Origin: Dehalococcoidia bacterium
GTDB taxonomy: Bacteria; Chloroflexota; Dehalococcoidia; GIF9; AB-539-J10
Direction of reading: 5' to 3'
Length of the DNA stretch: 64,000 nt
Assembly: GCA_046538235.1 (NCBI GenBank)
Contig: JBKHJG010000003.1
Coordinates: 41,722 to 105,721 of the forward strand
Position numbers and translations under genes: made by a program. Below the pieces are notes generated by a model, which did no database searches, had not been told where the DNA came from, and worked only from the letters and a program-made list of their open reading frames with translations. This document shows positions 1,758 through 4,618 of this stretch, piece by piece (the first letter of the stretch is position 1; every line of letters starts with the position of its first letter).

Positions 1758-2564
1758 CTATTCCCGCCACAGTTCGCCCGTAGCCTCCGCTATGCAGACG
1801 ACGGGGTCCACCACAAGCTCTCTGACGAGAGCCCGCAGAAAGCAACTGCCTGCTATGAAGTCGGCCACCGGAGGGCTAACCTGGTAGTACAGGGCGACAA
1901 ATAGCGAGCCCGTCCGGCTGGGCATCAGCACCACATCCCGAAACTCCCGCAACACGTCGATCTGTTGTGCAGCCGGAGTCCCGTAAGCTGCAGTGGCGAT
2001 GAAGCATCCAAACGGGAATTCCTCAGGCAATGGGATTGGGAACGGGAAGGGGAAAGGGAATGGGTACTGAGGCGTAGTTGATCCGTCGTCGCCTGGCGGT
2101 GTGTCATCTCCATTAGTCGGAGGTTCCTCCTCATCAGGCGGCGGCTCCTCTTCATCGGGCGGCGGCTCCTCCTCGTCAGGCGGCGGCTCCTCTCCGTTGG
2201 ATGGGGCCGGCGCGGTCAGATTGAGTTCAGTAGTCCAGCCATCATGGAAGGCAAATTCCTGGTCCGCTTTCTGCCCATCAACGTAGAAATGTACAGTGGT
2301 ATCCTCGGCAATCTCCCCCTGCACTACCAGACCATATAGTCCAAGACTGGTAACCGTGCAGTTACCGGATTCGGTCCCAGCAACTCGAGCACTGACCACG
2401 GTGCCTGCCTCGGCTGCCACACCATCGACCTTCACCGTGCCATAGAAGGCATGCCCCAGGCCGGGGGCCTGAGCAAGAACAGAGCCGACATAAGAGAACG
2501 TCAGCAGCAGGACCAGGAAAGCAGACCCGGCAACCCTTGACCGCCTCAGTAGACTCTCAATCAT
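1758..2564 (-). CDS. secreted acidic-repeat protein with conserved C-terminal [11 protein letters not shown] domain
   Basis: Internal start at MIES (ORF residue 36) gives a signal peptide ([17 protein letters not shown]). It carries (PPPDEEE)x3.5 and PFPFPF linkers. The C-terminal 80 aa is about 70 percent identical to the C-terminus of the adjacent 2714..4618 product. Confidence 0.7.
   Translation of the reverse strand: [268 protein letters not shown]
2124..2196 (-). repeat. 21-bp tandem repeat (about 3.5 copies) encoding PPPDEEE heptads
   Basis: Near-perfect tandem copies of ctcctc(c/t)tc(a/g)tc(a/g)ggcggcgg are visible on the plus strand, inside the CDS. Confidence 0.8.
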
Positions 2565-2713
2565 GTTCTGTTCTTTGAACCCGGCGCAACCTACCGGTGA
2601 CAGGCCCTTTTTAGAGCAGTTCCCTGCGCTGTGCTGATACTCAGCCCGGCCGGTCCGCCCCCGAACCACCCCTCACACTCTGGCTCCAGGAACCACGCCG
2701 CAATCAAGCAATC

Positions 2714-4618
2714 TTACCGCCGCCACAGATCGCCCGTGACCTCAACCGTCCACACAATGGGGTCAATCAGTACTTCCCTGACCAGACTCCTGACAAAACC
2801 GCTTCCTGCTATGACTTCCGCTATCGGCGGACTGGTCCGATAGTAGAGTGCAACAAGCCATGATCCCAGGCGGCTCTGCATCAATACCGCGTCCCGAAAC
2901 TCTCTCAGCACGTCGATCTGCTGCGCGGCTGGAGTGCCGTAGGCTGCGGTGGCGATGAAGCACCCGAAGGCAGAAAGATCAAAACCGAGGCCTGCACCGG
3001 GCTGGGTGGCCGTGGTGAATTGACCGATTGCACCTTCCATCACCGTGTCATCATACTTGAGCTGGGCCTTGAATTCATAGTCGGTCTGCGGCGCCAGTCC
3101 CGTCAGCGGGTAGGTATACGTGCCGTCTGACGTCTTGGACGCCCAGGGAGTATGAAACCAGGCTGGGTCGGTGGGTCTCTTGACCGCAAAACGTACTTCC
3201 ACCGAGCTATAGCTGCCCGTAGTGAAGGTCATGTTCAGGTCGGCTGAGTAAGTGGTGATGCCGCTGGCAGCCGCCGTAGTCACCGTGGGCGCGCCTTCCA
3301 GCACCTCAAAATTGGCGATCACCGTTATAGACTGGGCGGGCATGGTAAAGGTGGTCTCCTCTGCTGTGGCATCATCGAATGTGACGGCCGGCGGCGCCGT
3401 CCAGTTGACAAACTGGTAGCCGGCTGCGGGCACTGCCTCGATACTGACTGTCGCGCCCTCCGGATAGGCACCCTTGCCATCCACATCCACTGCCCGTCCA
3501 CCCTCCGCAGGGTCCCTGGCCATGGACAATGCGTAGACCGCCTGGAAGTTAGCGGTGACGGTCACAGCCTGGGCCGGCATAGTGAAGGTGGTCTCCTCTG
3601 CGGCAGCATCCCCGAACGTGACCGCCGGTGATGCCATCCAGTCTACAAACTGGTAGCCGGCTGCGGGCACTGCCTTGATACTGACTGTGGCACCCTCTGC
3701 GTAAGCACCCTTGCCGTCCACATCAAGGGCATCTCCACCGCCCGCAGGGTCTTCCGCCATGGTCAACCCGTACGCCACTGCAAAACTGGCGGTGACAGTC
3801 ACGTTGGCTGCCGGCATAACGAAGGTGGTCTCTTCATCCGTTGTGCTATCGAAGGTCACTTCCGGGACTGCCGTCCATTCGACAAATCCATAGCCGGTGG
3901 CGGGCGCAGCCCTTATCATGACGGTTGCGCCTGCTGCATAACTACCCCTCCCATCGACATCGACCGCCTCTCCGGTGCCAGCAGGGTCCTCCGCCATGGT
4001 GAGTTCGTAGGTCAGCGCAAAGTTGGCGGTCACGGTTACGTCTTCAGCCGGCATGGTGAAGGTGGTGTTCTCTGCCGTCGCATTCCCGAAGGTGCCGGCC
4101 GGTGCCGTCCAGTTAACAAATCCGTAGCCTGAGGCGGGGACCGCCTTTATCTCGACTACGGTACCCTCTTCATAAGGTGACGTACCGGTCTCGTCAGTGG
4201 CATTCCCGCCGGACACAGGGTCCTGCGCCATGGTCAGGCCGTACTTCGGGACAGCGGGTCCTGTCACGGTCAGGTCCAGTTCGGTCGTCCAGCCATCATG
4301 GTACTCGAAGGTCTGGTCCGCCTCTTCACCGTCGACATAGAAATATATGGTGGCTTCTTCCTCGATATCCCCCTGCACCAGCAGGCCGTAGGATCCGGCA
4401 GTAGTAATGGTAGTGCTGCCGTATGTCGTTCCTCCAACCCTGGCAACGATCACCGTTCCGGCAGGAGCGTCCTCGCCGGCCAGCGTCACCGTGCCGAAGA
4501 AGCCATGACCCAGGCCCACGGCCAGGACAGGGGTAACAACTGAGAAAACCAGCAGCAGGACCAGGAAGCCGAAGGTGACGTACCTCAATTTCCTCAAGCT
4601 CGCCTTGATCATCTTCAC
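2714..4618 (-). CDS. secreted protein with 4 tandem InlB B-repeat-like domains and C-terminal [11 protein letters not shown] domain
   Basis: 634-aa ORF with a signal peptide ([16 protein letters not shown]). The N-terminal domain is paralogous to that of 1758..2564. Four roughly 75-aa repeats carry the GY.FV.W...TVTANF signature. The C-terminal domain is shared with its neighbour. The first codon is GTG; an ATG lies 2 codons in. Confidence 0.75.
   Translation of the reverse strand: [634 protein letters not shown]

Follow-up and report, generated by a model that had tools for sequence, protein, structure and literature searches.

Dehalococcoidia have no conventional cell wall, and how they hold large adhesin-like proteins at the cell surface is unsettled. 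This question is raised by two adjacent genes, A and B, in a 64,000-nt stretch of DNA (contig JBKHJG010000003.1; hereafter the window). Judged by their sequences, the two genes belong to an uncultured Dehalococcoidia bacterium and encode paralogous modular proteins of the cell surface, exported by the Sec route, and both proteins end in a domain of the CFI-box-CTERM family (hereafter CFI-box). What, then, does this terminal domain do? Our answer, the likeliest of those considered but held with reserve, is that the CFI-box retains or docks its protein close to the membrane and is not a cleavable signal of the sortase type. We infer this because the domain stands strictly at the C-terminus, is followed by a transmembrane (TM) helix in many relatives, is joined to hypervariable cargo, and has no enzyme gene linked to it in the loci examined. 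Proteins that carry it are prominent candidates for surface retention in Dehalococcoidia.

The C-terminal domain shared by A and B

An earlier note on this DNA, made from the letters alone, had taken the shared C-terminal domain to be unclassified. Searches showed that it is already catalogued as NCBIfam family NF041770 (CFI-box-CTERM), with scores of 86.4 bits for A and 86.5 bits for B against a curated cutoff of 40, and with model positions 1-67 of 69 covered by residues 222-288 of the 303-amino acid (aa) open reading frame (ORF) of A and residues 553-619 of B. Gene A has even been annotated under that name: NCBI lists a protein of 268 aa, with 100% identity to its product, as 'CFI-box-CTERM domain-containing protein [Dehalococcoidia bacterium]', which places the window in a metagenome-assembled genome (MAG) of this class. 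NF041770 is curated and functionally uncharacterised, and is thus not the well-characterised family with a known non-sorting function that the note had allowed for. A and B are full members, with no family-level difference, and belong to its TM-less flavour. In both proteins the domain is 82 aa long, opens with the CFIATAAYG signature, carries the LREFRD and YYxxSPPIA motifs of the family, and ends 0-1 residues short of the stop codon.

Beyond NCBIfam, Pfam holds no model for the domain and no PADLOC model covers it; a sequence-profile search of the PDB returned a chance match only (E 1.8), and a Foldseek search of its model against the PDB found nothing better than E 5.9. AlphaFold modelled the isolated domain as four helices (predicted local distance difference test, pLDDT, 84.7), and the same four helices appeared in the model of full-length A at residues 188-194, 200-213, 217-238, and 241-267. 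By these models, the CFI-box is a self-folding four-helix module of ~80 aa with an invariant Cys as its first residue.

The conserved residues were taken from an alignment of 69 domain sequences, numbered here as in a 95-aa fragment of B. Invariant positions were C14, A17, T18, A19, Y21, G22, L32, R33, F35, R36, Y53, Y54, P58, P59, A61, and P81; no His was invariant. The Cys was found in 69/69 sequences and is kept even where its neighbours change, as in CSIATAAYG and CPLTAAAYG. It opens the fold directly behind a disordered linker rich in Pro, Gly, Ser, and Phe, whose last residue, at position -1, varies widely (G 156, P 60, E 28, F 21, D 20, and others among 359 cases). Throughout the alignment of the A/B subfamily, a PFPFPFP-type aromatic-proline motif (2007-2060 in the window) stands directly before this Cys.

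When A and B were compared by BLASTP, their C-terminal 84 aa were 73% identical (61/84, E 5e-40) and their N-terminal 124 aa 56% identical (E 8e-28), a similarity that by these alignments is far above chance. At the DNA level the C-terminal domains were 71% identical, with third codon positions matching at 40/82 (49%). By this comparison, the pair is an old duplication under purifying selection; recent gene conversion was rejected on the low third-position identity. The earlier note had described the two proteins as sharing their ends and differing only in their middles. The shared ends stand, as does the contrast between an acidic linker in A and four InlB B-repeats in B; the description of the middles was incomplete, since B also has an fn3-like domain of ~110 aa. 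A six-frame motif scan of the window found no CFI-box carrier other than A and B.

Position, tails, and cargo across the family

To place A and B within the family, the 69-sequence CFI-box profile was searched against 1.84 billion representative proteins clustered at 50% identity. Matches were found in 30,655 clusters at E <= 1e-3 and in 22,620 at E <= 1e-10, so that the domain is far from being confined to these two genes, the alternative that the note had raised. In the best 150 of the 30,655 clusters the CFI-box was at the extreme C-terminus, in proteins ranging from 87 to 2,009 aa. Apparently internal copies in four proteins were set aside as fused tandem genes, since a TM helix and a basic tail come after each copy, and a further signal peptide after these.

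A scan for CFIATAAY in one genome per species gave at least 598 stretches. Among the matches listed, the best were from Dehalococcoidia and Anaerolineae; other bacterial matches came from Nitrospirota, Omnitrophota, Hydrogenedentota, delta-, gamma-, and epsilon-proteobacteria, Desulfoscipio, and Armatimonadota, and archaeal ones from ANME-1/Methanophagales, Halobacteriota, Natrialba, and Hadarchaeota. Several copies were present in a number of MAGs, and CFI-box genes in tandem were common. Viruses rarely carry the domain (4 of 2.9 million viral contigs and 1/50,697 phage records), and a viral origin was rejected on these counts.

Carriers in 80 genome loci were then sorted by what follows the Cys, with the maximum 19-residue Kyte-Doolittle mean as the measure of a TM helix. 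TM-less tails run for 77-90 aa past the Cys, typically end in ...DPIVWVVEATGDIWRN, and had maxima of 0.3-1.1. TM-type tails run for 100-118 aa, have a clear TM helix and an RRR-type basic cluster, and reached 2.0-3.3. Among Dehalococcoidia matches the dominant form is a TM-less tail of 82 aa ending ...DPIVWxVEATGDxWR. A and B belong to it, ending 82 aa past the Cys, and the absence of a terminal TM helix from both, remarked on in the note, is shared with the whole class. In the TM-type tails of Nitrospirota, Proteobacteria, and Firmicutes, helix four is continuous with the TM helix. Since TM-type proteins have a signal peptide and positive charges past the TM helix, their CFI-box would lie outside the cytoplasmic membrane, on its outer face. 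TM-type tails of Dehalococcoidia are well conserved, with the terminal arrangement ...VNTTPxEK-(TM)-RRRGRGPEYT (L040, L044, L053, L056, L059, L060, L077-L079, and other loci), and this conserved cytoplasmic tail may act as a separate signal. Both flavours can occur together: they were found in one MAG in four (JBATUN01, JAUWQP01, CAISEW01, JBLRXG01) of the 12 MAGs of relatives with more than one recovered CFI-box locus. JBLRXG01 is also the source of L005, a locus syntenic with the window; the TM-type tail of L069 comes from the same MAG as L005.

The cargo is hypervariable. Upstream of the CFI-box in 78 full-length representatives we found 52 Pfam families, mostly of extracellular types, with InlB B-repeats in 37/78 followed by beta-helix, PKD, Big/Ig, cadherin, C-type lectin, cohesin, and Calx-beta domains; further carriers had an M6 metalloprotease, a PPIase, DUF11 repeats, or, in one case, a 'choice-of-anchor D' domain. 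The term 'choice-of-anchor' is used in NCBIfam for domains met with alternative C-terminal anchors. An N-terminal hydrophobic segment of signal type was present in 62/82 carriers sampled from genomes; a Tat motif can be read in the sequence of one carrier, L038, and the other exceptions were mostly truncated ORFs.

A second, unexpected class of cargo came to light on plasmids, 60 of which, chiefly from cultured Proteobacteria, matched the CFI-box by tblastn. The six plasmid members that were translated all scored above the NF041770 cutoff (64-98 bits), all lacked a signal peptide, and, where their cargo could be identified, it was cytoplasmic in type. A Burkholderia member has a cold-shock domain (Pfam E 5e-14) and a zinc ribbon, and zinc-ribbon proteins with a CFI-box were found in Methanophagales and Hadarchaeota as well; the member from Haloquadratum walsbyi PL47 has Mrr_cat (E 3e-23) and WYL (E 9e-14) domains; that of Acinetobacter lwoffii, on a 5.2-kb Rep/Mob plasmid, has a TPR-like region; and those of Cupriavidus and B. 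thailandensis have a short N-terminal YCE(Q/R)K segment, which we take to be Cas4-like. Since such members lack a signal peptide and have cargo of cytoplasmic type, a pure sorting signal for surface proteins cannot describe the whole family. Whatever role the invariant Cys has, it is independent of the cellular compartment.

In five of the six plasmid cases the CFI-box gene has a gene for a TM protein close downstream, directly adjacent except in X. citri, where one gene comes between. The A. lwoffii neighbour is a multi-TM ORF. Two paralogous genes for Mrr-type restriction endonucleases adjoin in H. walsbyi PL47 (L088 4218-5999); the product of one ends in WYL and a CFI-box, that of the other in a TM helix. 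Conjugative plasmids of Cupriavidus, Burkholderia, and Xanthomonas (L089 4815-5677, L090 4800-5769, and L087 4812-6416) encode a protein of ~140 aa that consists of the YCE(Q/R)K segment and a CFI-box, and downstream of it a protein that has a TM helix at its N-terminus, a body with weak likeness to Cas4/PD-(D/E)XK, and a Cys cluster at its C-terminus. By sequence, this pair looks like a split nuclease, with a CFI-box at the end of one part and a TM helix at the start of the other.

The note had also suggested looking for a co-occurring processing enzyme. All-vs-all clustering of 2,676 ORFs lying within 10 kb of the CFI-box genes in the 80 related loci and the window (81 loci) revealed no recurrent family of processing enzymes. 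The commonest neighbour family without a CFI-box, a housekeeping ABC ATPase, occurred in just 9/81 loci.

Proposed retention or docking and its rivals

In the mechanism that we propose, the CFI-box of TM-type relatives would be held in cis, on the outer face of the membrane, by the protein's own C-terminal TM helix and basic tail. In TM-less proteins such as A and B, the exported protein would be kept at the envelope non-covalently, either by binding of the CFI-box to the membrane surface or by its docking in trans onto a TM-bearing partner. The TM-bearing CFI-box paralogues in four MAGs of relatives, and the TM-protein genes beside the plasmid members of cytoplasmic type, speak for this reading. 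Other surface proteins of the window offer a comparison. A protein with CBM_X2 and InlB repeats (22709-23662, minus strand) and a beta-helix protein (11601-13301, minus strand) each end in a TM helix and an RRR/KRR tail, while an InlB-repeat and LRR protein (42538-43959, minus strand) has an N-terminal lipobox, LGVTGC. Since surface proteins of the window have TM-tail or lipobox anchors, the CFI-box would appear to fill the structural slot of an anchor. The proteins with a plain C-terminal TM anchor share with A and B the types of cargo, the genome, and the terminal slot; unlike them, A and B have no membrane-spanning hydrophobic helix, and their attachment would have to be peripheral or through a partner.

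SLH domains, dockerin-cohesin pairs, LysM, and other wall-binding repeats resemble the CFI-box in being small, autonomous, terminal modules on many unrelated extracellular cargos, but they show neither sequence nor fold similarity to it. The CFI-box occurs across very different types of envelope, archaeal and diderm ones among them, and on cytoplasmic proteins too, which rules out as its target any wall polymer confined to one lineage.

Several observations weigh against retention or docking. The helices of the domain are too weakly hydrophobic to be integral membrane segments, and no small TM ORF or gene for a TM partner was found beside A or B. Nor were TM ORFs enriched downstream of secreted CFI-box genes, where they followed 15/56 TM-less and 9/29 TM-bearing carriers. 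Cold-shock, Mrr and WYL, TPR-like, and zinc-ribbon cargo shows that the domain is not specific to exported proteins, and a Cys that is absolutely conserved, in reducing as well as in extracytoplasmic settings, may point to some chemistry for which simple docking has no need. Full-text literature searches found no paper on CFI-box-CTERM or NF041770, and hence no experimental record of localisation, processing, or oligomeric state. Finally, general oligomerisation is a serious rival, since it would explain the exported and cytoplasmic classes equally well.

According to this rival, the CFI-box is a C-terminal self-association module (dimer, trimer, or tetramer), confers multivalency on its cargo, and has no intrinsic link to the membrane. 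Its occurrence on exported and cytoplasmic cargo alike, always at the extreme C-terminus behind a flexible linker, would be expected of such a module, as would a small helical bundle rich in hydrophobic residues and the absence of a partner enzyme nearby; the common tandem genes would permit hetero-oligomers. However, the TM helix and basic tail that come right after the domain in so many members are left unaccounted for, as are the genes for TM proteins beside the few members of cytoplasmic type, and AlphaFold was confident on a monomer, although oligomers are compatible with that model. We therefore regard oligomerisation as unlikely to be the role of the domain.

A cleavable sorting signal, recognised and perhaps removed by an unlinked sorting enzyme that attaches or routes the cargo, is suggested by the name of the family itself, '-CTERM' being the NCBIfam convention for putative sorting domains. 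The strict C-terminal position, the variable extracellular cargo, the frequent TM helix and basic tail, and the occurrence with a 'choice-of-anchor D' domain fit it as well. Indeed, the systems of LPXTG and sortase, PEP-CTERM and exosortase, and PGF-CTERM and archaeosortase are like the CFI-box in standing C-terminally on secreted, hypervariable cargo with several carriers per genome, and the TM helix and Arg/Lys cluster of their tripartite signals are paralleled in TM-type relatives. Tripartite signals have a short motif right before the TM helix and a dedicated transpeptidase, whereas the CFI-box is a folded domain of ~80 aa whose Cys lies 75-80 aa before the TM helix, where there is one; A, B, and many others are TM-less and thus do not have the sortase-type architecture of short motif, TM helix, and basic cluster. 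The lack of a recurrent enzyme gene in the 81 loci, the spread of the family over lineages that share no single sortase type, and the existence of members without a signal peptide also speak against such a signal, which we consider decidedly unlikely. The suggestion in the note of a sorting, attachment, or partner-docking domain has partial support: it gains from the strictly terminal position, the 52 cargo families, the TM tails, and the choice-of-anchor D domain, and loses by the lack of a processing enzyme in the 81 loci and by the members with cytoplasmic cargo.

The Cys itself could be the point of the domain, as a nucleophile or a site of modification, through self-cleavage by an N-to-S acyl shift between the preceding residue and the Cys or through thiol attachment of a lipid or cofactor. 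It is, after all, kept when the adjoining F and I change and conserved in cytoplasmic members, it opens the fold directly behind the disordered linker, and the conserved polar residues T18, Y21, R33, R36, D37, Y53, and Y54 could make a site. Hedgehog and intein Hint domains are likewise C-terminal and begin with a nucleophilic Cys, and both A and B read G-C-F at this point, as does the Hedgehog cleavage site (G|CF). Hint domains are beta-rich, however, with ~130-150 aa and a Thr-x-x-His block, whereas the CFI-box has four helices in ~80 aa, and neither a structure nor a sequence match to autoprocessing domains was found. Pro at position -1, present in 60/359 cases, strongly disfavours an intein acyl shift. 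Because of the helical fold, the lack of a conserved His, and the frequent Pro at a highly variable -1 position, a Hedgehog- or intein-like acyl shift is unlikely, and Cys chemistry in general appears to us very improbable.

CaaX-box prenylation ('CFIA') was set aside since the motif is away from the protein C-terminus and bacteria, to our knowledge, lack the prenyltransferases for it, an Lgt lipobox since the Cys is away from the hydrophobic region of the signal peptide, and a disulfide since the Cys is just as invariant in cytoplasmic members.

Retention or docking at the membrane may also be stated more broadly, with the CFI-box as a universal bacterial and archaeal docking module, a four-helix unit that pairs with a TM helix in cis (TM-type tails) or in trans (TM-less proteins such as A and B, or the nuclease and cold-shock fusions on plasmids, whose genes adjoin those of TM proteins), its Cys perhaps being lipidated or held in a thioester. 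We consider this version quite improbable. If true, it would amount to a major enzyme-independent means by which proteins could be fixed to the membrane on either side, and to a principal route of surface display in the wall-less Dehalococcoidia. The family is in any case very large, widely spread, and apparently unstudied, and it is also found on plasmids of cultured Acinetobacter, Burkholderia, Xanthomonas, and Haloquadratum. Among cultured carriers are Desulfoscipio geothermicus and Natrialba swarupiae, with the secreted type, and Acinetobacter lwoffii pALWEK1.9 and Burkholderia, with the cytoplasmic type; since some hosts can be grown and handled, testing the domain directly would cost little.

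Coordinates and surroundings of A and B

The features of A and B, together with the upstream gene and the phage-type genes of the window, are collected in Table 1. ORFs of the window were called mechanically, which gave two adjacent minus-strand ORFs, 1758-2669 and 2714-4618, in full agreement with the earlier note and with GTG starts at 2669 (A) and 4618 (B). The true starts are likely to be ATG 2564 for A (MIESLL...) and ATG 4612 for B (MIKASL...), since the N-termini of the two proteins align there and both the NCBI record of A, which begins at ATG 2564, and the alignment of homologues agree. A ribosome-binding-like sequence, GAAGGTG, precedes the ATG of B.

Table 1. Positions in the window of genes A and B, their predicted parts, and other features
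Feature	Position	Strand	Description
Gene A	1758..2564	-	268 aa; signal peptide, N-domain, acidic linker, and CFI-box; predicted to be exported; likely start
A signal peptide	2466..2564	-	Read from sequence; aligned with B and 45 homologues
A N-terminal beta-sandwich	2211..2465	-	Predicted; residues 34-118; AlphaFold strands at 38-118, pLDDT >90
A linker	2007..2210	-	Acidic, proline-rich, repeated EEPPPDEEE, ending PFPFPFP; predicted disordered, pLDDT <50 at residues 158-180
A CFI-box-CTERM	1761..2006	-	Residues 187-268; stop codon 1758-1760
Gene B	2714..4612	-	632-aa modular protein, predicted to be exported, with C-terminal CFI-box; NF041770 and PF18998 matches; likely start
B signal peptide	4520..4612	-	Basic n-region, hydrophobic core, VLA cleavage-type end; read from sequence
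B N-terminal beta-sandwich	4265..4519	-	Predicted; ~85 aa; paralogous to N-domain of A, 56% identity
B InlB B-repeats (Flg_new_2), four	3308..4243	-	Repeats start at residues 124, 202, 281, and 360
B fn3-like domain	2978..3307	-	Residues ~436-545, ~110 aa; between repeats and CFI-box
B CFI-box-CTERM	2717..2962	-	Residues 551-632; CFIATAAYG...LREFRD...YYRTSPPIA...DLWRR; stop codon 2714-2716
Upstream gene	4677..7256	-	Predicted exported TIG and beta-helix protein, 859 aa; probable start MNKITS at 7187; no CFI-box or TM helix
SU10-like major capsid-like gene	56494..57435	-	Pfam
SPP1-type portal gene	57999..59375	-	Pfam
Integrase gene	61568..62956	-	Pfam

Sec-type signal features (a basic n-region, a hydrophobic core of 10-15 aa, and a small-x-small site) are visible by eye in both A and B and are kept in 46 homologues. 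The N-terminal domain that follows was put at roughly 100 aa in the note; the present boundaries give ~85 aa. When the model of this domain in A was searched with Foldseek, the matches were 2xhn (rhamnogalacturonan lyase), 3mn8 (carboxypeptidase D), 3l48 (PapC C-terminal domain), and 8qox (SlaB), with E values from 5e-4 to 2e-2, and on the modelled fold both proteins have as their N-domain a beta-sandwich of the transthyretin- or carboxypeptidase-regulatory-like kind. The middle of B matched PF18998 in four stretches with 232.6 bits (threshold 23.6; E 3.1e-70) and likewise matched TIGR02543 (33.6 bits). The assignment of the fn3-like domain is weak (Pfam fn3, E 0.04; FN3con in the PDB, E 0.003), and the segment is conserved in homologues from three loci (L003, L004, and L009).

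The upstream gene may well be co-transcribed with B and A, judging from a promoter-like minus-strand site at 7418-7390 and from synteny. The same order of a beta-helix protein, a B-like protein, and an A-like protein was found in L005, with 49% / 56% identity. The C-terminal ~240 aa of the 859-aa upstream protein (4677-5400) contain repeated GWN(L/M)(V/I)G...GEAYWV-type motifs; this region had no Pfam or NCBIfam match, and related MAGs have it conserved in the genes ahead of their tandem CFI-box genes (L001 43-792, L005 1398-3167). On the other side, one base past the stop codon of A, a GGGGCGCCCC palindrome followed by TTCT lies at 1747-1756; it was not flagged by the terminator scan. A gap of ~400 nt separates A from a gene at 142-1350 (minus strand) for a 402-aa protein with a C-terminal DUF4159 domain (E 2e-14), whose N-terminal 150 aa have a weak likeness to the contractile injection system family CIS13 (60 bits, cutoff 370).

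Housekeeping genes nearby include uppS, dxs, mutS, and aroA. Farther away, the window is prophage-like from 44000 to 63000, where GC content rises from ~0.58 to 0.63-0.68, AT skew is strongly negative, and many ORFs belong to no family; besides the genes in Table 1, Pfam also matched DUF5131. The sole tRNA of the window is tRNA-Ser(tga), at 42187-42276.

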